NCBI GenBank assembly: GCA_017528315.1
Contig: JAFXOW010000010.1
Coordinates: forward strand, 67,367 to 131,366
Source of the DNA: Bacilli bacterium
Lineage (GTDB): Bacteria > Bacillota_I > Bacilli_A > RF39 > UBA660
Direction of reading: 5' to 3'
DNA length: 64,000 bases
Under the pieces are notes generated by a model that worked only from the letters and a program-made list of their open reading frames with translations, had not been told where the DNA came from and made no database searches. Within the stretch, counting starts at the first letter, position 1, and every line of letters starts with the position of its first letter. Positions 5,508-63,233 of this stretch are shown one piece after another. A program made the position numbers and the translations under genes.

Positions 5508-5948
5508 ATGGATAATAATTTAAAAAGAGAAATAATTATAGATAATTATGAGAATCCTTTTCATAAGAAAAAGGTAGATAATAAAGATTTTATAAAAGCT
5601 AATACGCATAATGAATCTTGTATAGATAATATAGATTTATTTGTTAAAGTAGAAGATGGAGTTATAGTAGATGCATATTTTGATGGAGAGGCTTGTGCTA
5701 TTACTACCAGTGCCACTAGTATAATGCTAAAAAATATTATAGGTATGAAAGTAGATGATGCTCGGGTATTAATGAAAGAATATTATCATATGATTAATGA
5801 AGAAGAATATGATAGAGATATGCTTAATGAGTTAAATGCTTATTTTGATATAGGAAAACAAGCTAGTCGAATTAAATGTGCAACTTTACCATTTCAAACT
5901 TTAGAAAAAACTATTAAAATTTATGAAGGAGTAGGAAATGAAAAATAG
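5508..5948 (+). CDS. Fe-S cluster assembly scaffold, SufU/NifU-like
   Basis: 146 aa. NifU-N-like pattern (NPxH…ESCIDNIDLFVKVEDGVIVDAYFDGEACAITTSATS…) with three conserved Cys. Confidence 0.6.
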   Translation: MDNNLKREIIIDNYENPFHKKKVDNKDFIKANTHNESCIDNIDLFVKVEDGVIVDAYFDGEACAITTSATSIMLKNIIGMKVDDARVLMKEYYHMINEEEYDRDMLNELNAYFDIGKQASRIKCATLPFQTLEKTIKIYEGVGNEK

Positions 5949-24692: not shown

Positions 24693-25637
24693 ATGCTTTT
24701 TCATATATTTAAGTGGTGGATTATGTTAAAAAGAAAATCATTAAATAAAATTTATTTAACAACTTTAGTCTTATTTATTATGTTAGTAACGATTACTTTT
24801 GATTATTTAAAAGCGGATAAAAATAATATTATTTATGAAACAGAATATGTTAGTAATTTAGTAAATACTCATATATATTTATTAAATAAAGATAATTTGT
24901 TAGTTAAAGTTGATCATTTATTAAGAAGTAATACCTTAGAAGAAAATATAGAAGATATAATAAATGAATTATTTGTTACAAATAAAAAATATAATAATTT
25001 AAAAGGACTTATACCAAGTAATACTAAATTAAATAGAATAACAATAGATGATAAAACTGCTAATTTAGATTTTTCTAATGATTTGTTAAAAGTTAATAAA
25101 AATATTGAAGAAAAAGTTATTGAAAGTATTGTTTATAGTTTAATAGAATTAGAGAAAATAGATAATGTTAAAATAACTATTGAAGGGAATCCTTTAACAA
25201 AATTAGAAAAAAATAATAAAAATTTACCAATATTATTAAATGAATCTATTGGTATTAATAAAGATTATACTCTTAATAGTATTAAAGATATCGAAAAAGT
25301 AGTTATTTATTATGTTTTTAATGATAACAAAGATAATTATTATGTTCCAGTTACTAAATATGTAAATAGTCGAGATAGTAAAATTAAAATAATTATTGAT
25401 TCTTTAAAAGGAAATTATTTTTCTAATACTAATTTAATAAGTTATTTAAATAGAAATAGTAATATTGATTTTAAATTAGATACAGATATATTAACCATTA
25501 CTTTTGATAGTTTAAATGAAGATACTTTAGAAAGTGTTACTTATTCTATATCAAATAGTGTTTTTGATTCAGTTGAAAAAATAAATAAGGTTATATTTGA
25601 AGTAAATTCTAAAATAATAGATGTAAAATCAAAATGA
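24693..25637 (+). CDS. membrane-anchored hypothetical protein (GerM-like?)
   Basis: 314 aa, N-terminal TM, N/K-rich extracytoplasmic region. No firm motif. Confidence 0.35.
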   Translation: MLFHIFKWWIMLKRKSLNKIYLTTLVLFIMLVTITFDYLKADKNNIIYETEYVSNLVNTHIYLLNKDNLLVKVDHLLRSNTLEENIEDIINELFVTNKKYNNLKGLIPSNTKLNRITIDDKTANLDFSNDLLKVNKNIEEKVIESIVYSLIELEKIDNVKITIEGNPLTKLEKNNKNLPILLNESIGINKDYTLNSIKDIEKVVIYYVFNDNKDNYYVPVTKYVNSRDSKIKIIIDSLKGNYFSNTNLISYLNRNSNIDFKLDTDILTITFDSLNEDTLESVTYSISNSVFDSVEKINKVIFEVNSKIIDVKSK

Positions 25638-34859: not shown

Positions 34860-35729
34860 TTAATGAATAATTTTTTTAATATTTTTTAATAATATATTTT
34901 TTATAGCATCATCTTCTAGTTTAACTATAGTAGAAGTTTTATTACCTAAGTTATTAATAGAAGAACCTAATAGATATAAATATTTTCTATCAATAATAAA
35001 ATATCTATCATGGAAAGAATTATCTCTTATAACTTCTAAATTATGATATTGACTATTATATTTATTAATTTCTATATTACTTAATCTATTACTATCTTTA
35101 GTAATTAAAATAATATTTACTTTTATATTTCTAATTAAATCAAGGAATAAGGGATCAGCATAAGGATCAATAATAATTATTTCATTTGATGCATCTTTTA
35201 GAATGTGTAATACATTGGAATATGAATCATATGCTTGACCAGGTAGAATAAGTTGTTCTTTTTTATCAAACTTGGAAAAGATAAATTCAAATTTATCATC
35301 ATGTTCTAATAATTTGTTATTAATATTATTAATTGATTTATATATATCTTTATTGTCAATTAAATAATGTCTCATAGCTACAAAGGTATTTATTATTTTA
35401 ATGCTCATTTGTATTGCTATTTCACTGTGTAAGACACTTGAAATCATTGCAATTCCTTGCTCACTATAAACAAATGGTAAATTTGTTCTTCCTCCTTTAC
35501 TTTTTGCTATTCCAATTTGGAATAGCAAAGAATTGTATTCATTATTATTTAATTTAAAACAAAATTCAATTGGAAATCTTTCAATGTTTCGTTTCATTGC
35601 TTTGTTTAAATTTCCAGTTTCAATTTTAAACAATTTTGCTAAATCAGAATCCAGCATAACTTGAACTCCACGTATTTCATAAATCATATTTTCAATTTTT
35701 ACATTTTCTTTTTCAATAGCTTCATTCAT
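34860..35729 (-). CDS. ORF6N-domain (KilA-N-related) protein fused to a PLD-like (HxR/K…D…GSxN) C-terminal domain
   Basis: N-terminal ORF6N signature (IYEIRGVQVMLDSDLAKLF…LPFVYSEQGIAMISSVL). C-terminal FHDRYFIIDRKYLYLLGSSINN resembles the PLD-family HxKxxxxD(x6)GSxN motif with R in place of K. Confidence 0.55.
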   Translation of the reverse strand: MNEAIEKENVKIENMIYEIRGVQVMLDSDLAKLFKIETGNLNKAMKRNIERFPIEFCFKLNNNEYNSLLFQIGIAKSKGGRTNLPFVYSEQGIAMISSVLHSEIAIQMSIKIINTFVAMRHYLIDNKDIYKSINNINNKLLEHDDKFEFIFSKFDKKEQLILPGQAYDSYSNVLHILKDASNEIIIIDPYADPLFLDLIRNIKVNIILITKDSNRLSNIEINKYNSQYHNLEVIRDNSFHDRYFIIDRKYLYLLGSSINNLGNKTSTIVKLEDDAIKNILLKNIKKIIH

Positions 35730-36801: not shown

Positions 36802-39702
36802 ATGGATAATATTATAGATAATAAAAAAAGAAGATTTTTTTTGATAATTGGTATTTTATTTTTAATAATTGTTCTTATAGGTTCAGCTTATGCTTTTTTT
36901 AGTTATTCGAGAAATAGTCAAGCTTTTACTTTAACAAGTAATGGAATTACAGCAAGATTTACTAATGGTAGTAATCATATAAATATGCCAAATGCTTTTC
37001 CTGTGAGTGATGAATATGCTATTAGTAATTTAAGTGATTTAAGTTATACTGATTTTACCGTAACAGGTAATGCAGAAAATGAAGATGAAGCGATTACATA
37101 TGAAATATATTTAACAGAAAAAGATGGTAATACTTTAAGTAGTAATTACGTAAAGATATATTTAACAGATAGTAATGGTAATGTTATAGTAGAACCAACT
37201 ATCTATTCAAGTTTAGAAAATACAACTTATCAAAATGATGCAGCAACAGGAAAATTAGTATTAAAGAATACTTTAGATGGAAATTTTACAAAATCATATC
37301 GATTATATGCTTGGATAGATAGTAGTTTTAGTCAGAATGAATCTTTAACCTTTGATTTTTATGTCAATGTATATGCTTATAATGCTTTAGAAAGTGAAGT
37401 AGTTGGTGAATCAAATATTACATTTAATAAGCAAAGCGGAAGTGGAGGGACTAATAGTGTTGAAGCATCTTATAATGATGCTATGCCAACAATAACTTTA
37501 CCAACTAAAAGTGGATATACTTTTGCAGGATACTTTACAGGCGAAAACGGAACTGGTGATCAATATTATAATGCTGATGGTTCAGGAGTTACTGGATGGG
37601 ATAAAACAACTGATACTACTCTTTATGCTAATTGGACAACAGATGAGTATTTAATTGTTTATTATTTAGATGGAGGAACAGTTTCAAGTGCTAATCCGAC
37701 AACTTATAGTATAAATAGTAGTGCTATAACTTTAAATAATCCAACCAAGGTGGGATATATTTTTACTGGATGGAGTGGAACTGACTTAACAGGAAGTGAA
37801 AATACAACTGTAACTATTCCAGCAGGTTCAACAGGAAATAGATATTATACAGCAAATTTTGTACCAATTGGAATGACAGCTTCTGATTTAAAAGATACTT
37901 ATGTAGCTAATTCTTCAAGTGGACTAGTAGCTATAAATAATGATGGAGGATTATATACAGGAACTGGAACAATTAGAGAATATAGATATTCAGGAGTAGA
38001 TAATAGATGGGGAGGAGATGTCAATAACTATATTTGGTTTAATAATGAAATGTGGAGAATTGTTGGAATCTTTAAAGGAGATACCGATGATGGAGCAGAT
38101 GCGTGGAACATAAAAATTATGAGAGATTATTCAATTGGTTCATATAATGGAATAGAAGATGCAATTCAAGTGCCAAGCAGTTATGCAAGTACCGGAGCGG
38201 GAACTAAATCACTAGCATCTGGAGAAATATATTCTGTAACAGCTTCCGGTTCTCGTCCAGCGTTCACTGTTCAAAGAGTACGTTGGAACTCTGGAGGAAC
38301 CAATTCAACTAAAGTATACCCAAGTACATCTGGAATTTTATTATGGTTAAATGAAGCAAGTAATAGTAATTCTTGGTACTATAAGAATTATGATTCATCT
38401 ACGGGAATCAACAAAGAGTATGAAGAATTTATAGCAACAACCACATTTTATACAAGAGCTGGAAATAAAGAGTCAACTGTTGCTGATGAATATAATTTAG
38501 AAAGAATAACAGGAACCATATATAATAGTGAACCGACTTATACTGGAAAAATAGGAATGTTATATCCTAGCGATTATGCTTACGCATCATCTTCAACCAT
38601 TTGGAATGGTACTTCAACAACAATGAATAATTATGATAGTATCGGAGGCTTATCAAGTAATAAACTAAACAACTGGATTTTAAAACCTCATGGTTCAAGT
38701 GAATATTATTGGTTTATTTCTCCTTCATCAGCAAGTGATACTACAGTCCTATGTTGGGAAGGCACTGGTATTGTTGCGAGCTGTGATGCTAGGAATGGAA
38801 TTAATGCTGTACTCAATCTTAAGTCCTCAACATCTATTGTTGCTGGAACAGGAGAATTTTATAACCCTTATATGCTTGAAGAAAATAAATATGTTATTGT
38901 CTACGACTTAAATGGAGGAAGTGTAGCAAGTGCTAATCCAACATATTATACTTCAGAAAGTGGAAGTATAACCTTAAATAATCCAACAAAAGAAGGATAT
39001 ACATTTGTTGGATGGACGGGTTCTAATGGAAATGTTCCTCAAACTACTGTAACTATTCCAAGTGGATCAATTGAAGGTAAACATTATATAGCAAATTGGA
39101 CAGCGAATACTTATACAATAAGTTATACATTAAATGGAGGAAGTGTAGCAAGTGCTAATCCAACTAGTTATACAATAGAGACATCAACATTTAGTCTAAA
39201 TAATCCAATGAAAACTGGTTATAACTTTACAGGATGGAGTGGAACAGATATAAATGGAACTAGTAATAGTGTAAGTATAGCAAAAGGATCAACTGGTAAT
39301 AGAACTTATATGGCTAACTTTACAGTAGATGCTATTGGTAATGTATCATTTACATCGTCAGCTAATCCAATTTATAAAGGTGGATCAACTGCTACAACGA
39401 CTTTAACATATAGTGGAACTGCTAATACAATTGCTTATTCATCAAATAATTCAAGTGTTGCAATTGTAAGTAAAGTTAATAATTCAACAGCTACAATTAC
39501 TGCTGTAAATCCTGGTAGTGCAACAATAACCGTAACGATTACTGATTATGATGGAAATGAAACAACGGAAACAATAAATATAAATGTAATGGTAGACGCT
39601 GAAAATGTAAGTTATACACCTCCTGCTGGAATAACTTGTAATGGCAATACTTGTGATACTGTTCAGCTTATGATTGAAAAATTAGATGAAATGTATGATT
39701 AA
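36802..39702 (+). CDS. large cell-surface protein with Listeria-Bacteroides-type (Flg_new) repeats
   Basis: 966 aa. N-terminal TM/signal. At least four repeats of the …GY(T/I/N)F(T/V)GW(S/T)G…TV(T/S)IP.GS… motif. Precedes the DGR cassette. Confidence 0.6.
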   Translation: MDNIIDNKKRRFFLIIGILFLIIVLIGSAYAFFSYSRNSQAFTLTSNGITARFTNGSNHINMPNAFPVSDEYAISNLSDLSYTDFTVTGNAENEDEAITYEIYLTEKDGNTLSSNYVKIYLTDSNGNVIVEPTIYSSLENTTYQNDAATGKLVLKNTLDGNFTKSYRLYAWIDSSFSQNESLTFDFYVNVYAYNALESEVVGESNITFNKQSGSGGTNSVEASYNDAMPTITLPTKSGYTFAGYFTGENGTGDQYYNADGSGVTGWDKTTDTTLYANWTTDEYLIVYYLDGGTVSSANPTTYSINSSAITLNNPTKVGYIFTGWSGTDLTGSENTTVTIPAGSTGNRYYTANFVPIGMTASDLKDTYVANSSSGLVAINNDGGLYTGTGTIREYRYSGVDNRWGGDVNNYIWFNNEMWRIVGIFKGDTDDGADAWNIKIMRDYSIGSYNGIEDAIQVPSSYASTGAGTKSLASGEIYSVTASGSRPAFTVQRVRWNSGGTNSTKVYPSTSGILLWLNEASNSNSWYYKNYDSSTGINKEYEEFIATTTFYTRAGNKESTVADEYNLERITGTIYNSEPTYTGKIGMLYPSDYAYASSSTIWNGTSTTMNNYDSIGGLSSNKLNNWILKPHGSSEYYWFISPSSASDTTVLCWEGTGIVASCDARNGINAVLNLKSSTSIVAGTGEFYNPYMLEENKYVIVYDLNGGSVASANPTYYTSESGSITLNNPTKEGYTFVGWTGSNGNVPQTTVTIPSGSIEGKHYIANWTANTYTISYTLNGGSVASANPTSYTIETSTFSLNNPMKTGYNFTGWSGTDINGTSNSVSIAKGSTGNRTYMANFTVDAIGNVSFTSSANPIYKGGSTATTTLTYSGTANTIAYSSNNSSVAIVSKVNNSTATITAVNPGSATITVTITDYDGNETTETININVMVDAENVSYTPPAGITCNGNTCDTVQLMIEKLDEMYD

Positions 39703-39715
39703 AATATAAAAAGGA

Positions 39716-40741
39716 TTGAAAAATATGCAGAAAATAAAAAAAATTCTAAAAAGAAATATTAAACTATTAATAACCTTAATATTAGGAATAATTATACCAA
39801 TAATTGGAGTATATGCATCAACCATATATTATAATGGTAATGAAGTAGGATATAGTAATGCTAATTTAACTAAAAATGGTCAAGTAGTAACTAATGTTCA
39901 AGATGCCTTAGATGCCTTGTATAATAAAGCAACAGATCCTTCATATGGTGAAGATGTTTGTACAACTAGTCCTTTTAAGTTAGGAGATTATGTAAGTTAT
40001 ATGCCAACATCAACAAGTTATTCTCCAAATACTTCGTTAAGAGGGGATGCAACAGCAGTAACAATAAATCCAAGTGAGTTGACACTTTGGAGAGTAATAA
40101 AAATAAATCCAAATTGTACAGTAGAAGTAGTATCAGAGTATGTATCAACAAGTACCGTGCAATTTAAGAATAAAACTGGATATTTAAATTATGTGTATGT
40201 ACTAAATGAGATAGCTAAACAGTATGCAGATTCAAGCCATACGTATACACTTGATCCGGCATCAGCCCCAAATGGAGCATTTAGAAATGTAGGATATGAT
40301 GGAGCAACACTTCAAATAACTAATACAACAAGAATAGATAATACGTCACTTGGAGCATCAGGAGGATTATGGTATCAAAAGTCAACTGGATTAAATGGAG
40401 AAGAGAGTTTGGGAGGAGGAGATCAAGGATTTACAACGGATTTAAAATTATTGAGTGATGCAGGAGTAAGTATAGCTGCCTATGCTAAGGGAACAACAAC
40501 GCCAACAGAATATTGGTTAGCTTCGCGCTCCTATACGTGGAACAGTACTACTGATTGGGGATTTGCCGCCCGTAGTGTGCGCTCGTATGGCTACGTTGGT
40601 GGCTACTACCTGTATGACTGGGATGGCAGTAGCTTTACTTCGTACCTCAGCAATAGAGCGGTTCGTCCTGTAATCACTCTAAAGTCTGGACTCACGGTGA
40701 GTGGAGCTGGAACAAGTGCATCACCATATGTGATAAACTAA
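39716..40741 (+). CDS. DGR target protein: membrane-anchored surface protein with C-terminal C-type-lectin-fold variable region
   Basis: 341 aa, N-terminal anchor. 3' 131 nt (40543-40673) matches the downstream template repeat except mainly at template adenines. C-terminus …AVRPVITLKSG… is typical of CLec-fold DGR targets. Confidence 0.75.
   Translation: MKNMQKIKKILKRNIKLLITLILGIIIPIIGVYASTIYYNGNEVGYSNANLTKNGQVVTNVQDALDALYNKATDPSYGEDVCTTSPFKLGDYVSYMPTSTSYSPNTSLRGDATAVTINPSELTLWRVIKINPNCTVEVVSEYVSTSTVQFKNKTGYLNYVYVLNEIAKQYADSSHTYTLDPASAPNGAFRNVGYDGATLQITNTTRIDNTSLGASGGLWYQKSTGLNGEESLGGGDQGFTTDLKLLSDAGVSIAAYAKGTTTPTEYWLASRSYTWNSTTDWGFAARSVRSYGYVGGYYLYDWDGSSFTSYLSNRAVRPVITLKSGLTVSGAGTSASPYVIN
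40543..40673 (+). repeat. DGR variable repeat (VR)
   Basis: Hand alignment to 41610-41740 gives about 109 of 131 identical positions. About 18 of about 22 mismatches are at template adenines. Template AAC (Asn) codons map to Tyr/Asp/Arg/Leu/Ser codons in the variable repeat. Confidence 0.75.
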
Positions 40742-40766
40742 GATAGAAAGATAAAGAATATGAAGA

Positions 40767-40790
40767 GTGGACGCCCTCTAGGACGTCCAC
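40767..40790 (+). other. GC-rich hairpin (GTGGACG…CGTCCAC) immediately downstream of the VR-bearing gene
   Basis: 7-bp GC-rich inverted repeat that stands out in an AT-rich genome. Positioned like the stem-loop that enhances DGR homing in other systems. Confidence 0.5.
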
Positions 40791-40827
40791 GACAGCCTTA
40801 AAAAATTAAAAGAAAGAAGGGTTAATT

Positions 40828-41250
40828 ATGGCGAATGTTTTTATGCATAAGACATTAAAAGAAGCATTCTCTGATTATATAATTTTCTTAAAAGTTGGTA
40901 ATTTTTGTGAAGCATATGATAATGATGCTAAAATTATTTCTTATTTATTTAATTATAAATTAAGAAAACTAAATGATACTCTTAATTGTGTCTTTCCTCT
41001 TGTTGCTATAAACAAAGTTTTAAGTGTTTTAGATAGAAAAAGTATTAATTATATAGTTATTGATAAAGCTCATAATTATGAAGAAGAAATAAAACAAAAT
41101 TATAAGAGAAAAAATAAATATGAAGAAACATTAAATGAAGCTTTAAAATATACTGAAAAAATAGATAGAATAGAAAAAATAAAAAATCATTTAATGTTAG
41201 ATGATAAATACCTTCTTGATATAGAAAGACTTTTGTATGAACAAAAGTAA
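40828..41250 (+). CDS. small protein with MutS domain-I-like (mismatch-binding-domain-like) N-terminal region
   Basis: 140 aa. …FLKVGNFCEAYDNDAKIIS…LNCVFPLVAINKVLSVL… parallels MutS domain I (…FYRMGDFYELFYDDAK…IPMAGIPYHA…L..L…). Embedded between the DGR target gene and avd. Confidence 0.4.
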   Translation: MANVFMHKTLKEAFSDYIIFLKVGNFCEAYDNDAKIISYLFNYKLRKLNDTLNCVFPLVAINKVLSVLDRKSINYIVIDKAHNYEEEIKQNYKRKNKYEETLNEALKYTEKIDRIEKIKNHLMLDDKYLLDIERLLYEQK

Positions 41251-41584
41251 GTTTTATATTATTACTTTAGTTGAAAATCTTATTTTAGATTTTGATAAAT
41301 ATTTAACTAATTTCCCTCATATGTATATTGAGTTAAAAAGAGAGATTATGAATACAAGTTATAATATGTTAAGAATTACTCTAGAAGCCAATGAAACGTA
41401 TTCAATAGATAAGAGAATCGATTATCAAGATAAAATTATTGCTAATATTAAGTATTTAGATTTTCTAATTAATTCTTGTTATGATAAGAAAATTATAAAT
41501 AATAAAAGATATTTAAAATTTGGTAGTAATCTAGATTATTTACTTAAATATATTTATGCATGGAGAAATAAGTGTAGGGCATAG
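41237..41584 (+). CDS. avd: DGR accessory variability determinant (Avd)-like small basic helical protein
   Basis: 115 aa, basic. Positioned directly upstream of the template repeat and reverse transcriptase as in canonical DGRs. …FPHMYIELKREIMNTSYNMLRITLEAN… resembles the Avd four-helix-bundle family. Confidence 0.5.
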   Translation: MNKSKFYIITLVENLILDFDKYLTNFPHMYIELKREIMNTSYNMLRITLEANETYSIDKRIDYQDKIIANIKYLDFLINSCYDKKIINNKRYLKFGSNLDYLLKYIYAWRNKCRA

Positions 41585-41609
41585 TTGTTAGAACGTATTG
41601 TAATCTTTT

Positions 41610-41740
41610 CAGTACCACTGATTGGAAATTTACCGCACGTATTGTGAACTCGAATGGCAACGTTGGTAGCAACAACCTGTATAACTGGTATAGCAGTAGC
41701 TTTACTTCGAACAACAACAATAAAGCGGTCCGTCCTGTAA
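41610..41740 (+). repeat. DGR template repeat (TR), non-coding, AAC-rich
   Basis: Intergenic copy of the 3' end of gene 39716-40741. Lies between avd and the reverse transcriptase. Confidence 0.75.
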
Positions 41741-41867
41741 CTTCTATAAACTTAGGAAATATAATTATTATTATATTTGATAAATATAGAAATAGACTAT
41801 TGTCCTTTCCATTTGGATAAACTAAGAAAAATATATCTGTTAGTAAAATAATGAAAGGGGATATATT

Positions 41868-42821
41868 TTGAAAAAATATAATAATTTATATGATAATATT
41901 TATAAATTAGAAAACATAATATATTGTTTTAATGAAATATGTAAAAATACTAGAAATAAAAAAAGAGTAGCAGAATTTAAATCATTAAAATGTGTTTATA
42001 TAAGTAGAGTATATAATGACCTAAAAAATAAAACGTATGAACCAGGTAAGTTTAATGTATTCTATATATATGATCCTAAAAAAAGAAGAATAGTCAGTCA
42101 AAATATGTATGATAAACTAGTTAATCATTTAGTAAGTAGATATATTTTATATCCTAGTATACTTCCTTGTTTAATAAATGAAAACTGTGCATCACGTCCA
42201 AACAAAGGAGTTAAATATGCCTTAGATTTATATTATAAATATAGAAGAATTTTATATAATAATTATAATAGTTATTATATATTAAAATGTGATATTAAAG
42301 ATTATTTTGGAAGTATTAATATAGATATATTAAAAGAAAAAATAGAAAGAAGGATTAAAGATAAAGATTCTTTACTAATAATTAATAAAATACTTGATAG
42401 TGATAATAAATTATCAATTGGTTTTATGACTAGTCAAATACTTGGTATATTTTATTTAAATGACTTAGACCATTATATTAAAGAAAATTTACATATAAAA
42501 TATTATGTTAGATATCAAGATGACTTTTTATTGATGCATCAAGATAAAGAATATTTAAAATACTGTTTAAATAAAATAAAAGAATTTTTAATTAAAGATG
42601 ACTTAATATTAAATAAGAAAACAAGGATTCATAAAAATACAGATAATTTTATATTTTTAGGTAGAAATAAGTATAATAATTATACTAAATATAGAAATAT
42701 AAAAAGAAAAATTAAATATAAAAAATATTTATATGAAAATAATATTATTAATCTTAATTCTTATATTAGTAGTATTAATTCATATAAAAATTTAATAAAT
42801 AGAAAGGAATTTAAAAAATGA
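41868..42821 (+). CDS. DGR-type reverse transcriptase
   Basis: 317 aa. RT motifs: DIKDYFGSI (motif 3), SIGFMTSQ (DGR-specific [ILV]GxxxSQ in place of QGxxxSP), YVRYQDDFLL (YxDD box). Confidence 0.85.
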   Translation: MKKYNNLYDNIYKLENIIYCFNEICKNTRNKKRVAEFKSLKCVYISRVYNDLKNKTYEPGKFNVFYIYDPKKRRIVSQNMYDKLVNHLVSRYILYPSILPCLINENCASRPNKGVKYALDLYYKYRRILYNNYNSYYILKCDIKDYFGSINIDILKEKIERRIKDKDSLLIINKILDSDNKLSIGFMTSQILGIFYLNDLDHYIKENLHIKYYVRYQDDFLLMHQDKEYLKYCLNKIKEFLIKDDLILNKKTRIHKNTDNFIFLGRNKYNNYTKYRNIKRKIKYKKYLYENNIINLNSYISSINSYKNLINRKEFKK

Positions 42822-43816
42822 AAAAAATAAGATTATTTTTAAAGAATAATTTTAAACTATTAATAGCATTAATAGTAGGAATAGCTATATCAGGAACTTG
42901 TGTATATGCAACTTCAATACAATTTGATAGTAATAAAGTAAGTTTTGATAATACAAGTGCTAATTTAACTAAAAATGGAGTTGCAGTAACTAATGTTCGT
43001 GATGCTATAGATGCTTTGTATGAAAAATCACTTTGTACTAATAATCCTTTTAATATAGGAGATTATGTAAGTTATACACCGACAGCAACAAGTTATGATG
43101 TAACATCAACAGGAGTAAGTGGTGCAACGGGAACCTTAAATCCAAGTGAGTTAAATTTGTGGAGAGTAATAAAAATAAATCCCAATTGTACAGTAGAAGT
43201 AGTATCAGAGTATGTATCAACAACAAATATAACTTTTACAGGTAAGGATGGATATTTAAATTATGTATATATATTAAATGAGATAGCTAAGCAATATGCA
43301 GATGAAAATCATACGTATACACTTGATCCAACAACCGCCCCAGATGGAGCATATAGAAATTTTGGATATGATGGAGCAACACTTCAAATAACCAATACAA
43401 CGAGAATCGATAATACAACACTTGGAGCATCAGGAGGATTATGGTATCAAAAGCCAGTTGGATTAAATGGAGAAGAAAGTTTTGGAGGAGGAGATCAAGG
43501 ATTTACAACGGATTTAAAATTATTGAGTGATGCAGGAGTAAGTATAGCTGCCTATGCCAAGGGAACAACAACGCCAACAGCCTATTGGATTGATTCACGT
43601 ATGTATAAATGGGATGATGCTTCTACGTGGAGCTTTGTTGCACGGCGTATGAATGCTTCTGGACTTCCCGGAGGTGGGAGCCTATATAGTTATAGCAGTA
43701 GTAGTTTTACGTCTTCAAGCGATGGTGGATATGCTGTCCGTCCTGTCGTGACTCTAAAGTCTGGACTCTCAGTAAGTGGTCAGGGTACTAGTGATTCACC
43801 ATATGTTATAAATTAA
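42818..43816 (+). CDS. paralogue of the DGR target protein (secondary or decayed target)
   Basis: 332 aa with the same architecture and about 60-70% identity to 39716-40741. C-terminal VR-like region is diverged at non-adenine positions with indels. No downstream GC hairpin. Confidence 0.6.
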   Translation: MKKIRLFLKNNFKLLIALIVGIAISGTCVYATSIQFDSNKVSFDNTSANLTKNGVAVTNVRDAIDALYEKSLCTNNPFNIGDYVSYTPTATSYDVTSTGVSGATGTLNPSELNLWRVIKINPNCTVEVVSEYVSTTNITFTGKDGYLNYVYILNEIAKQYADENHTYTLDPTTAPDGAYRNFGYDGATLQITNTTRIDNTTLGASGGLWYQKPVGLNGEESFGGGDQGFTTDLKLLSDAGVSIAAYAKGTTTPTAYWIDSRMYKWDDASTWSFVARRMNASGLPGGGSLYSYSSSSFTSSSDGGYAVRPVVTLKSGLSVSGQGTSDSPYVIN

Positions 43817-43847: not shown

Positions 43848-44312
43848 TTGATTATGAAAAATATGTTAAATAAAATAAAAGGAATAAGTAAGAGAAATAA
43901 AATAATAATTATAATAGGAATAGTATTAGTAGTAATAATAGGTATTAGTATATTCTTTATTATTAGAAATAATAATAAAGGTAATAAATTAATATTAGAT
44001 GATGATAAACCTATTGTAGAAAATATTAAAGTAGATAATACTATAAATGAAATAAGTGTTGTAAGTTCAAGAATAGAGAAACTTGGTAAAGTTAGTAGTA
44101 TTTATGTTAAAGTGAAAAATAATACAGATAGTATTATAGATAAAAGTGATTTAAAGTTAACTATTAAAGATAGTAATGATAATGTTATATTAACATCATA
44201 TATTAAAGAATTTAATAATTTTAATATAGGAGAAGAAAGAGAGTTTCAAGTATCTACTAGTAGTGATATAAGTAATGCTTCTAAGTATATAGTAGAAAAA
44301 GTAGTAGAATAA
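43848..44312 (+). CDS. membrane-anchored hypothetical protein
   Basis: 154 aa, N-terminal TM. RBS aaggaa. Confidence 0.4.
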   Translation: MIMKNMLNKIKGISKRNKIIIIIGIVLVVIIGISIFFIIRNNNKGNKLILDDDKPIVENIKVDNTINEISVVSSRIEKLGKVSSIYVKVKNNTDSIIDKSDLKLTIKDSNDNVILTSYIKEFNNFNIGEEREFQVSTSSDISNASKYIVEKVVE

Positions 44313-44435: not shown

Positions 44436-44789
44436 ATGTATTTGTTGACTAATCAACAAGTGTATTATATCATTTATAATGAACTTAGAAGAAGAGGATA
44501 TGCTGTAGATGTTGGAGTAGTTGAAATAAGAGATGAAAATAATCGTAAACAAACAGAAATAGATTTTGTTTGCAATTTGGGTAGTAAAAAATATTATATA
44601 CAATCAGCACTTAATATTGATGAAAAAGAGAAACAAGAACAAGAATTTAGGCCGCTTATGAATGTAAATGATTTTTTTAAAAAAATTGTTATAGTAAAAA
44701 GTGGTGGTAAGATATGGAGAAATGAAGTTGGAATTACGATTATGAATATATATGAATTTTTATTAAATGAAAATAGTTTAGATTTATAA
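44436..44789 (+). pseudogene. C-terminal fragment of a DUF4143-type AAA ATPase (truncated gene remnant)
   Basis: 117-aa ORF …TEIDFVCNLGSKKYYIQSALNIDEK…FFKKIVIVKSGGKIW… resembles only the C-terminal restriction-endonuclease-like domain of DUF4143 ATPases. No N-terminal P-loop module present. Confidence 0.45.
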
Positions 44790-44833: not shown

Positions 44834-45155
44834 AAATATTAGCGTAAATTTAATTTTTGTTATATTTTTTATACCTCAATTTTGTTTTTTGTTTTTATAA
44901 ATTAAACAAAAAGGAAATTTGAGGTATTTTTGTATTAAAAATATTGATTTACAAAATTTGACATATATAGATTGTTGTGTTAGTCTTTTAATTACCGGTG
45001 AAAATACTATAGTTAGAGTACTATAATTATGGAGAAATGAGAAGGTAAAAATGCGAAAATATGTCACTAGAAATGAGTGTGAAAATGATTCTAATTTGAT
45101 TGTGCCAATCGCATAAGACGATTTATTTCATGAAGTATTTGGAAGAGAGGAGTAT

Positions 45156-46008
45156 GTGGCTAATACGGAAGTACTTTTAAGTGCTTTACTTGGTATTCCA
45201 TATGATGAAACAAAAGGTCATGTAATTATAAAATCTAGTGGTATGTCTAATTTGGCAGTTAATTCTAAACATGGTGAAAAAGATATTGTTGCTTGGGTTA
45301 ATATAGATGAACCATTAAAAATTACAATTGAAATGAACAAATATAGTACTCATTAACCAATTATTGATAGAAACATTTTCTTTGCAAGTGATGTTTTTAG
45401 TTCAGGTCTTGAACGTGGTAATTCTTATGAAGATTTGGTTCAGACAATTCAATTTAGTTTTAATCCTCGTTATATTGATATGGAACATAAAGATGTAATT
45501 GACGAATATACTTTAAGAAATAACCATAATCATGAATTATTAAGAAAATTTACTTCGTATCAAATTAATATTGCAAGACTATCCGAATTATGGTACAAAA
45601 AGAGAAAAGTCTAATATAAATCCATTATTAATTTTATTTGGTGCATTGATTTGGGAAAATGAAAAAGACAAATTTGAAGAAATAATTAAGAGTGAATTAA
45701 TGGATAAAGCTATTGGAACTTTAATTGAAGGAATAGTGTTCGATATGAATAAGAATTCTGATTTTGTTGTAAAGTATTATGATAGAGAGGAAGCTCGTAA
45801 GCAAGAACTTGAAATAGAAAAAAAGTATCTTCGAGAAGAAGTTCGTGATGAGGTTCGTGAAGAGGTTCTTGCTGAGGGCATAGAACAAAATAGGATTGAA
45901 ATGATTATGAATATGTATAAAAAAGGTTGGACTTTGGAACACATAGCAGATGGATGTAATCTAACAATTGAAGAAGTAGAAAAAATAATTGATTCAAATA
46001 AAGAGTAA
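45156..46008 (+). pseudogene. Rpn-family (YhgA-like, PD-(D/E)XK) recombination-promoting nuclease/putative transposase, disrupted
   Basis: Family hallmarks …ITIEMN…, …IDRNIFFASDVFSSGLERGNSYEDLVQTIQFSFN… and C-terminal …KGWTLEHIADGCNLTIEEVEKII…. In-frame TAA at 45354-45356 and a frameshift near 45560-45615. Confidence 0.65.
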
Positions 46009-46081: not shown

Positions 46082-46196
46082 ATCTATCGTGTTTGATTGC
46101 TTAGATGTGCAAGGTTGTCGATACACGTGGGCACGTTGTTCGGGTTATTTGCACGGAGCAAGCCTATGCCAGATATAGACGAAAGGAGCCGATAAT

Positions 46197-46508
46197 ATGT
46201 CAAAACAGATAGTTCGTATTAGATTGAAAGCATATGATCATCGTGTACTTGATAATGCATGCTTAAAAATTGTTGAAACTGTTAAAAGATCAGGTGGAGA
46301 AATCAGTGGACCAGTACCACTTCCAACTGAAATTGAAAAGTTTACAATTCTTCGTGCAGTACATAAGTACAAAGATTCACGTGAACAATTTGAAATGAGA
46401 ACTCATAAGAGACTTATCGATATCAAAAATCCAAGTAAGGAAATTATTGATGCTTTAACACATTTAGATTTACCAAGTGGTGTTGATATTGATATTAAAC
46501 AAAAATAA
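46197..46508 (+). CDS. rpsJ: 30S ribosomal protein S10
   Basis: 103 aa. Strong S10 similarity. Confidence 0.95.
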
Positions 46509-60293: not shown

Positions 60294-63233
60294 ATGTATA
60301 CTGATTATTCCGAAGAAAAAGAAGAAAATTATTATGCAGATGATGATAATAATAATGGATTTGATAATGAAAAATTAAAAAAAATTGTTTTTTATGTGAT
60401 AATTGGAGTGGTTGGTCTTATTTTAATTATATTGCTTGCTAAAGGATGTACTAAGAAAACTAATCAAGGTCAAAGTAGTCAAAGTACTAGTGATCCAGTT
60501 GTTGTTATTCCATATAAGAGTATGTCATTAGCAGTTGGAGAAACTGATACAATACTTGGAGATGTTTATTTTAATAAAGATGAAAATCCAGTTATTGTGT
60601 GGACATCCGAAAATAGTAATGTTGTTCGTGTATCTGATGATGGTTCAGTTGAAGCAGTTGGTGAAGGATCAACTGATGTTATTGGTAAATATGTTGAAAA
60701 TGGAAAAGAATATACTAGTAAATGTTTAGTAACGGTAACATCAAAAGACATTGTACCTCAAAGTATTTCTTTTGAACAAGAAAAAATAGATATAAGTGCA
60801 GGAGGAAGTTTTTTGCTTCAATATACTGTTACTCCAACGGATGCTAAAGTTCGAGATTTAGTTTATGAAAGTGCTGATAAAGCTATTGCGTTAGTTGACA
60901 ATTCTGGATATATTTATGGTATTTCTGCTGGTACAACAACAATTACTTTAAAAACAAGTGATGAAAATGTTAAAGCAAGTATCACAGTTAATGTTGTTGA
61001 AGCAGAAAATGATGAACCAGTTGTCAATTTAGATCCTGTAAGTTTAAAGATTAGTGGTTTATCAAATGGATTGGCTATTAATAATACAAGTACTATTAAT
61101 TATGAAATTTTACCAACTAATGCAACTAATAGAAAAATTACTTGGGAAAGTAGTAATCCTGAAGTTGCAACGGTTGAGGATGGTGTTGTCAAAGGAATAA
61201 GTGCTGGAACGGCAACGATAATTGCAACAACTGAGAATGGAATATCTGATAAGATAGTTGTAACAGTTGAAACTTCGAGTGTTCCGGTTGAATCAATAAC
61301 TATAGTTGGTGATACTTCTATTACAATTACAAGAGGTGGAACTAAACAACTGGAATTTAATATAACTCCAGAAAATGCTACCAATAAAGAAGTTAAATTT
61401 TCATCAAGCAATACAAATATTGTTTTTGTTACATCAGATGGCATGATGGCGGCTTTAGAACCTGGAAGTTCTGTTGTTACAATTACAACAAAAGATCAAA
61501 ATAAAGTTGCAACAGTTAATGTTACTGTAAAATCGGATGAAGATGGTTCGTCTGGCGGAGATGATTCGTTTGATGGAGGCGATTCGTCTGGTGGAGGTGA
61601 TTCGTCTGGTGGAGGCGATTCGTCAGGAGGAAGTGATTCATCGGATCCAAGCGAAGAAACTTGTACTGCACCTATAGCATCTAATATCTTGAGTATTTCT
61701 CACGATGCTTCAAGTGGAAAAATTTCTACCCAATCTTTTACACTTGCTGCAAGTCAAAAACTATCAGGAAATAATATTAATGTTAAATTAGATAATTTTG
61801 GTTCAGCATGTTTTAAAGATGCAACATATACAGTTAAATATGGAAGTAGTAGTACTAATTTAAAAACAATGTCAAATTTCAATTCGATAAATTTACCTAC
61901 GGAAAGTGGAAGCTCTTTAGTTACTTTAACCTATAAAGGATATTATTTAATAGAAGTTAGTGCTAAATTAAAATCTAATGATACAACCTTAACTAAGTCA
62001 TATTATGCTTACAAATCTACTGGTAGTAGTTGTACAAAAAATTGTACATTAGATAATCCAAGTAGTGGATCAGAAGATGGTTCAAGTAGTGGATCTAGTG
62101 GTGGATCTAGTACTGGTTCAGGAAGTGGTACTGGTGGCGGAACTGGAAGTAGTTTATGTACTTTAGATTCTTTCTCTATTACTTCTAATCAATATTCTTA
62201 TGGTGCACGAACTTCTACTAGCAATTGGTACACAACTGATAGTACGTTCTTCAAAAATAGTAGTCCAGTTCCTGCTTTGACGGTTACTAAATATGATTCA
62301 TGTATAAAAAGTGTAAGTTATAAAGTATATCGTAATTCAACTTCCTCAACTAAAACTCAAACTTTAGTTAGATCAGGTAATAGTTTAAAGAAAAATAGTA
62401 GTATAGAACTTGGAACAACTGATGGTTATTATTATGTGACTGTTACATTTAAAAGTAATAGTGGTAATACTTTTACAAAACAGTATTATGCAGTTGTAAA
62501 AATATCATCTAATAGTTCAACTTCTGGTAATAGTAATAATTATATAAGTATTTTGCCTGCTAATGATACTACAAATGGTCAAACGACGTATGTAATCACT
62601 AAAATACCTTCAACTGTTCAATACGTATATTATTGTACATCAAAGACCAAAAATGACTGTTCACTTAATACAACTACTGGTAAATACAGATTAAGTTTTA
62701 CAAGTGATAATAAACGATTTACAACAATTTCGTATTCTTCTTCATCTAATTCTTCACAAAAAGGTGCCAGAGCATGTTTTAGAGCTTGGAATTCATCAGG
62801 ATGGCTTGGTCAGCCAATTTGTTTAAATGTTCAAAATAAAACCTCTTCATCAACTACTGGTTCAAATTCTTATACAATATCTGTACAAAAAGACTCGGGA
62901 CCAACAACATCTGGTTCATACAGTAAGGGTGATTTAGTAATTACCTGTTCATATAATATAACTGTACCTACGGGTGTTGATCACATAAGACACGCATATT
63001 CATATGTAAGTTACTTAGATTGTTTAAATAAATTAGATAAAAATGGGCAATATGATACTTTTAAAACAATGGATATTAAGAGGTATTCATATATACAAAA
63101 AAATGCCAATAATTCTAAAGTAGTTTATACGTGTTTTACTGGATATAATAAGTCTGGTGAGAAAATTACTAATCGTGTTTATAAGAGTATTATGTATAAC
63201 AGTACTACACTTAAATCGTCTTGTACAAGCTAA
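60294..63233 (+). CDS. large cell-surface protein with multiple Big_2 (bacterial Ig-like) domains, Gly/Ser/Asp-rich linkers and Cys-containing C-terminal domains
   Basis: 979 aa. N-terminal TM anchor. At least four Big_2-like repeats (…KISWESSNPEVATVEDGVVKGISAGTATIIATT…). Low-complexity linkers (SGGGDSS)n and (GS)n. Confidence 0.6.
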   Translation: MYTDYSEEKEENYYADDDNNNGFDNEKLKKIVFYVIIGVVGLILIILLAKGCTKKTNQGQSSQSTSDPVVVIPYKSMSLAVGETDTILGDVYFNKDENPVIVWTSENSNVVRVSDDGSVEAVGEGSTDVIGKYVENGKEYTSKCLVTVTSKDIVPQSISFEQEKIDISAGGSFLLQYTVTPTDAKVRDLVYESADKAIALVDNSGYIYGISAGTTTITLKTSDENVKASITVNVVEAENDEPVVNLDPVSLKISGLSNGLAINNTSTINYEILPTNATNRKITWESSNPEVATVEDGVVKGISAGTATIIATTENGISDKIVVTVETSSVPVESITIVGDTSITITRGGTKQLEFNITPENATNKEVKFSSSNTNIVFVTSDGMMAALEPGSSVVTITTKDQNKVATVNVTVKSDEDGSSGGDDSFDGGDSSGGGDSSGGGDSSGGSDSSDPSEETCTAPIASNILSISHDASSGKISTQSFTLAASQKLSGNNINVKLDNFGSACFKDATYTVKYGSSSTNLKTMSNFNSINLPTESGSSLVTLTYKGYYLIEVSAKLKSNDTTLTKSYYAYKSTGSSCTKNCTLDNPSSGSEDGSSSGSSGGSSTGSGSGTGGGTGSSLCTLDSFSITSNQYSYGARTSTSNWYTTDSTFFKNSSPVPALTVTKYDSCIKSVSYKVYRNSTSSTKTQTLVRSGNSLKKNSSIELGTTDGYYYVTVTFKSNSGNTFTKQYYAVVKISSNSSTSGNSNNYISILPANDTTNGQTTYVITKIPSTVQYVYYCTSKTKNDCSLNTTTGKYRLSFTSDNKRFTTISYSSSSNSSQKGARACFRAWNSSGWLGQPICLNVQNKTSSSTTGSNSYTISVQKDSGPTTSGSYSKGDLVITCSYNITVPTGVDHIRHAYSYVSYLDCLNKLDKNGQYDTFKTMDIKRYSYIQKNANNSKVVYTCFTGYNKSGEKITNRVYKSIMYNSTTLKSSCTS

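Follow-up and report, generated by a model that had tools for sequence, protein, structure and literature searches.

The window analyzed in this study, i.e. the whole 64-kb stretch (64,000 nt) of contig JAFXOW010000010.1 from a Bacilli bacterium, contains a cassette of genes with the organization of a diversity-generating retroelement (DGR), in which sequence is transferred from a template repeat (TR) to a variable repeat (VR) of a target gene by a reverse transcriptase (RT), with changes introduced at adenines. A preliminary description of this DNA had recognized a complete cassette at positions 39716–42821. The core of the element is indeed located there, but three further components had been overlooked: (i) a gene encoding a small MutS-like protein (Msl), (ii) a second, decayed target gene and (iii) a structured RNA in the spacer behind the TR. 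The core features of the cassette are as follows (positions within the window, strand, description):

39716–40741, + strand: target gene 1; the mechanically called open reading frame (ORF) begins with TTG 39716, but ATG 39725 is the likely start codon (338 aa), and the N-terminus is signal-peptide-like
40543–40673, + strand: VR1, a 131-nt ungapped match to the TR, coding for residues ~277–319 of the 341-aa ORF
40828–41250, + strand: Msl, a MutS-domain-I-like protein of 140 aa (pI 8.4), encoded between target gene 1 and the Avd gene
41237–41584, + strand: Avd-like protein of 115 aa (pI 9.2), overlapping the Msl stop by 14 nt
41610–41740, + strand: TR, non-coding, starting 25 nt past the Avd stop, with 40 adenines in its mutable part (41611–41724)
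41868–42821, + strand: DGR RT of 317 aa, with a TTG start and the ribosome-binding site (RBS) AAAGGGG

BLASTN analysis within the 64-kb window aligned the TR with VR1 over 131 nt without gaps (83.2% identity, E 2e-35), and the same pair was recovered as direct-repeat family D2 in a repeat search of the window. No third TR-like copy was found in the window by blastn. Ungapped tabulation of the pair gave 22 mismatches, 18 of which fall at adenines of the TR (nine A>G, six A>T and three A>C). The changed positions comprise 18 of the 42 adenines present in the 131-nt TR and 4 of the 89 other positions (odds ratio 15.9, Fisher p = 1.8e-7), so that the non-adenine identity of the two copies amounts to 95.5% (85/89). 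The preliminary description had given the same repeat coordinates and a hand count of about 18 of about 22 differences at adenines; the recount reproduced these values exactly, together with the enrichment of mismatches at template adenines.

The TR lies in the non-coding segment that separates the Avd stop (41584) from the RT start (41868). Read in the frame of the target gene, it contains 12 AAN codons (eight AAC, two AAT and two AAA), and 38 of its 42 adenines occupy codon positions 1 and 2. The same two positions hold 17 of the 18 adenine changes, in agreement with the AAN-codon design and the conserved third positions noted earlier. Stop codons can be reached by mutagenesis of the TR through the two AAA codons only, and the 40 mutable adenines, distributed over 26 codons, define a theoretical repertoire of ~10^24 DNA and ~10^22 protein sequences. 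VR1 is depleted of adenine (18%, compared to 40% elsewhere in target gene 1), and its GC content peaks at 0.47 against a surrounding background of 20–30% GC.

Proteins encoded by the cassette

The RT matches the Pfam model RVT_1 as well as PHROG 1423 (E 8e-72). Its best match among PDB sequences is 8ub7_A (E 2.3e-20, 76 bits), which tblastn to the genome of Bordetella phage BPP-1 identified as its Brt protein; RTs of the group II and retron types scored 21–25 bits in the PDB search (E ~1e-4 for the group II intron RTs). In the motif alignment, IGFMTSQ of the RT is placed opposite IGSLTSQ of Brt, and RYQDD opposite RYMDD. The two motifs that had been read in the 317-aa ORF before, the DGR-type IGxxxSQ (in full SIGFMTSQ) and YxDD (YQDD), are thus both aligned to Brt, and by similarity scores the RT groups with this prototype enzyme and not with the group II or retron RTs. 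Typically, DGR RTs carry SQ in motif 4, where SP is found in the group II and retron enzymes. In species-representative genomes the closest homologs are at most 71% identical and originate from metagenome-assembled genomes (MAGs) of uncultured gut "Clostridia/Bacilli", including Clostridium sp. CAG:508, CAG:451 and Mycoplasma sp. CAG:776.

The product of the small basic ORF upstream of the TR matches PHROG 3206 ("Avd protein of DGR") over residues 4–112 (E 5.3e-9), which agrees, together with its pI of 9.2, with its earlier designation as Avd-like. The gene order proposed before (target/Avd/TR/RT) is correct as regards Avd, TR and RT, but the target and Avd genes are not adjacent, since msl is placed between them.

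The Msl protein matches Pfam MutS_I at E 7.7e-7, which is over the gathering score; among PDB sequences no match was found. Analysis of the 80 related loci by tblastn revealed Msl beside the RT in 68 of them, and Avd in 44. In an alignment of 74 Msl homologs, residues Gly24, Phe26 and Asp33 are invariant in 73–74 sequences. The stacking Phe is conserved in all 74, while the position of the Glu of the MutS mismatch motif is variable (the window copy has Glu). Because the Phe is invariant and the Glu position is not conserved, this pattern fits a protein that binds mismatches without signalling for repair. In Bacteroides ovatus, host MutS reverses retrohoming 5–10-fold, in an all-or-nothing manner. 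It is conceivable, if rather doubtful, that Msl is a dedicated anti-mismatch-repair factor, which, by binding to the densely mismatched cDNA:VR heteroduplex, would protect the latter from host MutS.

Target 1 is identical to NCBI entry MBR3660678.1, annotated as "hypothetical protein" in a MAG that carries the label Bacilli bacterium. Its translation probably starts, as in that entry, at ATG 39725 (338 aa) and not at TTG 39716, which had been taken as the start previously. The N-terminal sequence, KKILKRNIK followed by LLITLILGIIIPIIGVYA|ST, resembles a signal peptide that could be cleaved at an AxA-type site and ends VYA|S. AlphaFold modelling with a 71-sequence alignment gave a pLDDT of 86.9 overall: the first 40 residues form a low-confidence helix, and residues 81–338 reach a pLDDT of 94–99 in 10-residue blocks (87 in one block). 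A C-type-lectin-like globular domain extends approximately over residues 80–338 of the model, and the predicted structure supports the location of the variable residues on a C-type-lectin-like fold. The target had been described as a membrane-anchored protein with a CLec fold. The fold agrees with the predicted structure, but the anchor is not supported, as the N-terminus looks like a cleavable signal and no other anchor was found.

A Foldseek search with the target 1 model found nothing in the PDB, and none of the 71 members of the target family matched a Pfam model. Matches to DUF1566/Lcl_C, DUF823 and Fib_succ_major were absent over the VR domain, and the CLec2/DUF1566 (Lcl_C) sequence class was rejected for the target, since no DUF1566/Lcl_C match was obtained for any of the 71 members. 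Variability in the target-family alignment is highest exactly in the VR (entropy of 2.45 bits, compared to 1.47).

A second target gene directly follows the RT gene:

42818–43816, + strand: target paralog 2 of 332 aa, 65% identical to target 1, overlapping the RT stop by 4 nt
43616–43747, + strand: relic VR of paralog 2, A-depleted like VR1 and no longer a copy of the TR

The relic VR differs from the TR at 27 of 41 adenine and 34 of 88 non-adenine positions, plus a 3-nt indel (insertion). Its non-adenine identity to the TR is therefore 61%, as opposed to 95.5% for VR1. It contains 18% adenine (40% in the rest of the gene) and keeps the scaffold residues W.F.AR..G..G..LY..SSFTS..AVRPV. Outside the VR, target genes 1 and 2 share 80–91% DNA identity (repeat families D1 and D3–D6). 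Such stronger divergence of the VR region than of its surroundings is expected if VR1 is periodically overwritten from the TR and gene 2 is not. No second TR for gene 2 was found in the window by blastn, and paralog 2 looks like a target that has dropped out of diversification.

A protein of 331 aa encoded by a 1746-nt contig in ENA (P0121), which clusters with gene 2, is an exact chimera of the two targets: its first 255 residues come from the N-terminus of gene 2 and the remainder, with VR1, from the C-terminal part of gene 1. It was rejected as a VR variant: the junction falls across a 300-nt repeat of 91% identity (40177–40476/43249–43548), and the chimera is probably an assembly artefact, although real recombination between the paralogs could also have produced it.

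Spacer RNA and DNA elements flanking the repeats

The segment between the TR and the RT gene was found to encode a structured RNA, part of which pairs with the 3′ end of avd. The following elements were distinguished:

41737–41866, + strand: structured spacer RNA (analogue of Sp) of 130 nt, abutting the 3′ end of the TR
41742–41747/41786–41791, + strand: spacer helix P1; its 5′ strand starts two nt past the end of the TR/VR homology (40673/41740)
41757–41765/41770–41778, + strand: spacer helix P2, 9 bp with the tetraloop TATT
41795–41806, + strand: spacer Stop strand, ACTAT(T)GTCCT, pairing with 41576–41586
41808–41810/41815–41817, + strand: spacer helix P3, minimal, followed by an A-rich stretch (ATAAAC)
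41831–41840/41857–41866, + strand: spacer helix P4, overlapping the RT RBS in the window copy
41576–41586, + strand: 5′ strand of P0, AGGGCATAGTT, spanning the Avd stop codon; candidate "cPRT Stop" duplex with 41795–41806

The 130-nt spacer RNA is conserved in 18–20 elements, the RTs of which are 55–70% identical. RNAalifold identified four helices, in which 22 of 29 pairs are compensatory. In the pair count, 93.0% of the positions were paired, compared to 76.6% after shuffling and 40–63% after sliding, and 22 pairs with double changes were observed against 10.5 expected; none of 500 shuffles reached the observed values on five measures. The long-range pairing P0 was found with RNAduplex in all 20 elements. 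Its pair count was 93.4%, compared to 80.4% (shuffled) and 31–53% (slid), and 7 of 11 pairs are compensatory (0/500 shuffles); the strand register was chosen to maximize pairing and bulged bases were removed, by which the percentages are inflated, and the compensatory counts less so.

A covariance model of the four local helices gave one match in the window, at 41737–41866 (100 bits, E 6e-18), and a single match in each of 47 other loci (48 sequences with the window), of which more than 25 were not among the training sequences. For all loci whose TR had been mapped (20-odd loci), the match starts at the TR 3′ end, and the spacer RNA still abuts the TR where the latter lies downstream of the RT gene (L007, L017 and L040). 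It has no match in Rfam. In eleven loci (L003, L004, L008, L016, L018, L024, L034–L036, L045 and L049) the spacer RNA, Avd and Msl are located on the strand opposite the RT, so that the template RNA and the RT would be transcribed separately there; the TRs of these loci are unmapped, as the TR/VR scan (see below) covered the plus strand. Most relatives carry a terminator-like hairpin, a T-run and a separate RBS between the spacer RNA and the RT gene, a segment missing from the window, L021 and L099, in which P4 overlaps the RBS of the RT instead. The spacer RNA could be used as a sensitive marker for the TRs of this DGR clade.

The order of these elements in the window is the same as in the DGR RNA of BPP-1: a duplex of the avd 3′ end with Sp, a hairpin behind the TR, a duplex of the TR end with Sp, and a short stem-loop followed by adenosines. 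P0 corresponds to the first of them, termed "cPRT Stop" (Handa et al., bioRxiv 10.1101/2023.10.23.563531). The second is matched by P2, which fits the description, in the same work, of the Avd-binding stem-loop after the TR as "most commonly 9 bp, capped by tetraloops". P1 corresponds to the template:primer duplex formed by the TR end and Sp, and P3 with ATAAAC to that short stem-loop with its adenosines. This covariation-supported model of a whole DGR RNA lends independent support to the conservation of the BPP-1 cis-priming architecture in distant Bacillota.

Two further elements, detected at the DNA level, lie at and behind the 3′ end of VR1. The first resembles the sequences involved in the initiation of mutagenic homing (IMH):

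40658–40695, + strand: IMH-like 3′ boundary of VR1 (putative function), consisting of GC-rich GCGGTTCGTCCTGT and then an imperfect match to the TR end
40767–40790, + strand: GC-rich inverted repeat (hairpin or cruciform candidate), GTGGACGCCC-TCTA-GGACGTCCAC

The last adenine change is located at 40656 of VR1 (41723 of the TR), and none occurs further 3′. Comparison of the boundary sequences of the VR (GCGGTTCGTCCTGTAATCACTCTAAAGTCTGG) and the TR (GCGGTCCGTCCTGTAACTTCTATAAACTTAGG) revealed a GC-rich segment (GCGGTTCGTCCTGT and GCGGTCCGTCCTGT, respectively), followed by a stretch with 11 of 18 positions identical. In sequence, the VR1 and TR ends thus match the published IMH/IMH* signature, which includes a GC-rich start and similar but non-identical 3′ ends of VR and TR (PMC5758913).

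The GC-rich inverted repeat is placed 94 nt past VR1 and 26 nt past the stop codon of target gene 1. Its DNA fold has an energy of −10 kcal/mol (z = −3.3). The minimum free energy DNA fold contains nine pairs (seven plus two, around an unpaired C and A), and a terminator scan tolerating G-T pairs gave ten pairs with the loop TCTA. No T-run follows on the + strand. The hairpins located 3′ of the TR in the window are AT-only, and none of comparable GC content was found after the TRs of the related loci. Hairpins of 10–14 bp with 4-nt loops are present 83–107 nt past the VRs in more distant related loci, and the sister element L099 (see below) has one at the place equivalent to that in the window. 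A GC-rich inverted repeat after the VR but not after the TR is known from approximately one third of DGRs.

The DNA fold scan revealed no comparable hairpin after target gene 2. This gene also lacks the 5′ homology, and has kept its IMH-like end, which is 80% identical to that of gene 1 over 88 nt. The presence of one live and one decayed target in the same cassette therefore shows which cis features are lost upon dropout (the downstream hairpin and the 5′ homology) and which is retained (the IMH-like end).

Taking these elements together, the cassette may operate in the following way. By analogy with BPP-1, the transcript would span the 3′ end of avd, the TR and the 130-nt spacer, and would fold through P0 (Avd-stop region with spacer), the 9-bp tetraloop hairpin P2 after the TR, and P1 (post-TR nucleotides with spacer). 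A complex of RT and Avd would bind this RNA, with cis-priming at the P1 duplex, at about TR positions 41740–41741; if the analogy extends to the priming site, the cDNA may be primed from a spacer adenosine near 41791 and start opposite C41741. The TR would be copied faithfully except opposite adenines, where any nucleotide could be inserted. The cDNA would then replace VR1, with the GC-rich IMH-like boundary as a guide and with the downstream hairpin as a probable aid in homing, and Msl, a stand-alone homolog of MutS's mismatch-recognition domain, probably acts on the mismatched cDNA:VR heteroduplex. Up to 26 codons of the ligand-facing surface could be recoded in this manner, corresponding to ~10^22 possible proteins.

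Related elements, activity and alternative explanations

TR/VR pairs were searched for in 81 sequences (80 related RT loci and the window segment), on the plus strand and with a filter requiring at least 70% of the mismatches to be at A. A-biased pairs were detected in no fewer than 45 sequences, many of them with 100% of the mismatches at A. The value is a lower bound, since the window's own pair failed the filter, BLAST having extended it into the IMH flank. Two more distant loci, L060 (3866–4412) and L067 (638–1119), contain two or three tandem TR-like copies, all A-biased relative to a single VR, which may represent multiple TRs or tandem repeat units, an uncommon arrangement among DGRs.

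The element of loci L099–L102, referred to here as the sister element, has the gene order of the window: large surface protein, target, MutS_I protein, 115-aa ORF, RT and second target. Its RT, Avd and Msl are 69%, 73% and 53% identical, respectively, to those of the window. Across the ~2-kb Msl-Avd-TR-RT region L099 and L100, which come from two different samples, differ at 5 positions, and their TRs at 1, compared to 28 positions in the VRs, 26 of which are at TR adenines. The sister element is demonstrably diversifying. A target paralog downstream of the RT is also present in L021 and in L099–L102, and the second target contains a live VR in the relatives L037 and L099/L100. Variation in the target-family clusters P0100 and P0088 (~41% identical to the target), the loci of which are L099–L102, is almost confined to the VR stretch.

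In L099 (sample ERZ28615007; 8743–8880 vs 5737–5874), VR1 and VR2 have the same 22 differences from the TR, which may result from repeat collapse, gene conversion or the homing of one cDNA into both targets. In L100, VR2 differs and carries an indel.

Several results speak against the interpretation of the cassette as a DGR, and part of them concern the protein families. Among the NCBIfam models, the RT scores best with that for group II intron RTs (group_II_RT_mat, E 2.9e-22), followed by those for retron St85 RT and Drt3a; no DGR RT model is present among the NCBIfam matches, and the Avd protein matches NCBIfam DivGenRetAVD (E 2e-5) and Pfam bAvd (E 2.7e-4) under their curated cut-offs. This might suggest an RT of some other kind (group II intron, retron, or a defence-associated RT such as DRT or Abi) beside an incidental repeat, the more so as phage records label some of the homologs "retron-type". 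We consider this extremely improbable. The NCBIfam scores are far under the cut-offs (79 vs 300, 46 vs 235 and 39 vs 200 bits, in the above order), the PDB scores clearly separate Brt from the group II and retron-type enzymes, and motif 4 has SQ. No group II or retron RNA was found at the locus in the Rfam search, and no intron RNA domain, maturase/X domain, En domain or msr/msd is present at the cassette, which carries instead Avd, Msl, a TR and a DGR-type spacer RNA. Hardly any probability attaches to another explanation, according to which segmental duplication or gene conversion of the ordinary kind copied the target 3′ end next to an unrelated RT, the two copies then diverging by normal mutation. 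Direct repeats between genes 1 and 2 are indeed common here (D1 and D3–D6), but gene 2 shows the normal divergence from the TR, with 39% of the non-adenine positions changed, whereas 18 of the 22 differences between VR1 and the TR are at adenines of one copy. Moreover, the A-rich copy is non-coding, begins 25 nt past Avd and is followed by the covarying RNA that abuts the TR in relatives, and the A-biased arrangement recurs in at least 45 related loci. In our judgement it is very nearly certain that the cassette is a real and complete chromosomal DGR of the Msl-plus-Avd ("Architecture D") type, and its original identification as a DGR is borne out by the adenine bias, the Brt-like RT, Avd and the placement of TR and VR.

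The other unfavorable results concern activity. VR1 is identical in all four other assemblies covering it (L002, L083, L084 and the NCBI MAG); these derive from at least three samples, and contigs from ERZ28019130, ERZ28018792 and SRR12529285 contain a cassette 99.9–100% identical to the window, including VR1. The 90%-identity cluster of the target accordingly consists of one sequence on 6 contigs. Four non-adenine differences (two C>T and two T>G) have accumulated between the TR and VR1. Both C>T differences are silent third-position changes and the two T>G are nonsynonymous; the latter reflect either drift of the TR or VR since the last homing event or occasional RT errors at other bases. 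The second target has already escaped diversification, and no VR variation is seen among the 27 members of the target-family cluster P0113, which shows that fixed lineages exist in the family. These data could be explained by a recently inactivated or dormant DGR, which wrote VR1 not long ago and is now fixed, or active under conditions outside those sampled. We regard this as unlikely, although it deserves to be taken seriously. All five ORFs and the catalytic motifs are intact, as are the RNA helices, the IMH-like boundary and the hairpin, and VR1 has kept its non-adenine identity to the TR, which the decayed paralog has lost. The compared assemblies are near-clonal consensus sequences (0–2 differences in 2.7–5.7 kb), in which low-frequency variants are invisible, so that their agreement in VR1 is a weak test and does not refute a DGR. 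The sister element is diversifying, and substitutions at non-adenine bases occur in 23% of the catalogued DGRs (PMC5758913). Judging from its intact features, the window copy is probably a functional DGR.

The VR1-specific IMH sequence gave no match in a metagenome scan. An 18-mer common to the TR and the VR had 14 matches in metagenomes, which were rejected as chance matches because they lacked homology to the cassette.

Genomic context and comparison with known systems

The following genes and elements were identified in the vicinity of the cassette and elsewhere in the window:

24693–25637, + strand: Germane-domain ORF (sporulation/germination)
34860–35729, − strand: ORF6N protein of 289 aa, matching phage anti-repressor PHROGs (E 1e-22)
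36802–39702, + strand: upstream neighbor of the cassette, an exported protein of 966 aa containing Listeria-Bacteroides repeats and a Big_2 domain
43848–44312, + strand: membrane-anchored protein of 154 aa following target 2, with a weak FxLYD match (E 4e-4) under the cut-off
46094–46182, + strand: S10-Clostridia leader match (29.2 bits vs a gathering score of 35.1, E 0.009), upstream of rpsJ (46197–46508)
60294–63233, + strand: large exported protein of 979 aa with four Big_2 domains

The 966-aa protein matches Pfam Flg_new (E 3.6e-25) and TIGR02543 (E 7e-31), as anticipated in the preliminary description, in which it was named a Listeria-Bacteroides-repeat protein. In the sister loci, a large surface protein (1164–1569 aa, Cadherin-like) is encoded directly upstream of the target. 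The idea that the 966-aa protein includes the target domain in a non-diversified form was considered and rejected (BLASTP E 0.3, not significant). The C-terminus of this protein (VSYTPPAGITCNGNTCDTVQLMIEKLDEMYD, 39560–39702) resembles the N-terminal motif of both targets (VGYSNANLTKNGQVVTNVQDALDALYNK, 39830–39925), which is conserved in the target family as TNVQxAIDxLYxK; the BLASTP match between the motif and the C-terminus is not significant. This likeness may reflect a shared interaction or assembly module.

The cassette is flanked upstream by genes encoding a Der/EngA GTPase, a diacylglycerol-kinase-like protein and a PrsA-type rotamase, and downstream by the S10 ribosomal protein operon, the leader of which, although scoring under the gathering threshold, is probably genuine and divergent. 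No phage structural genes were seen near the cassette, and the flanking ORFs had no PHROG match with the exception of the ORF6N/anti-repressor-like gene. A prophage context was ruled out by the housekeeping flanks, the sole phage-like gene being placed 4 kb upstream. The element is chromosomal and belongs to an uncultured AT-rich gut lineage of Bacillota. The host had also been called spore-forming; the Germane-domain ORF is the only hint in that direction.

The 154-aa protein encoded behind target 2 has no homolog in the related loci (tblastn) and is probably not part of the cassette. Further downstream, between ORFs 44436–44789 and 45156–45356, a long palindromic hairpin at 44870–44928 was matched on both strands by the mir-2574 model (E ~0.1–0.2); it is probably a terminator or other inverted repeat.

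Identification of the cassette explains a cluster of genes annotated only as "hypothetical" (e.g. IKN63_02110 and IKN63_02130 in NCBI), which together make up a system for the programmable hypervariation of an exported lectin-like protein in an uncultured, small-genome-like gut Bacilli lineage. The clade to which it belongs constitutes a large, architecture-conserved set of Msl-containing DGRs. The current understanding of DGRs, a class catalogued by hundreds to thousands, is not overturned by these results.

As regards the target, the closest systems include the solved DGR variable proteins TvpA of Treponema denticola and TaqVP of Thermus aquaticus. In the available part of PMC12237041, the N-terminal domain of the IgA peptidase of Thomasclavelia ramosa (PDB 9QA6) is described as C-type-lectin-like and similar to 8Q4E; DGR diversification is not reported in that part for this seven-domain metallopeptidase, with which the window target has no sequence-level match.

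Architecture D, defined by the presence of a small MutS-like accessory protein (MSL) together with avd, includes the DGR of Legionella pneumophila (Wu et al. 2018, PMC5758913). Proteins of the MSL class have 112–283 aa and a pI of 7.2±1.7, and occur with avd and without HRDC (PMC5758913). The Msl protein of the window (140 aa, pI 8.4) falls within this class: Avd is present, and no HRDC domain was matched in the cassette by Pfam or NCBIfam models. Msl is also encoded by DGRs of Bacteroides (Macadangdang et al., bioRxiv 10.1101/2024.11.15.621889). Common features of the Architecture D DGRs and the window element are the combination of Msl, Avd, TR and RT, the GC-rich inverted repeat after the VR, AAC-rich TRs and multiple targets. 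However, the host of the latter is an uncultured, very AT-rich (20–30% GC) gut Bacilli lineage, its target family has no Pfam or NCBIfam model, and its second target is decayed. In addition, the element is chromosomal, beside the S10 ribosomal operon, and not carried by an integrative and conjugative element or prophage, and its target, unlike LdtA, has no lipobox.

The DGR of BPP-1 (mtd-avd-TR-brt) differs from the window element in several respects. The latter has no phage context and carries the additional msl gene, and its target is an exported cellular protein instead of the tip of a tail fibre. The mutable adenines of its TR number 40, compared to 23 in BPP-1, and helix P4 of its spacer overlaps the RBS of the RT gene. 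Nevertheless, the two elements have in common Avd, the A-specific transfer of sequence from TR to VR, an IMH-like boundary, a downstream hairpin, and the motif 4 and YxDD sequences of their RTs.

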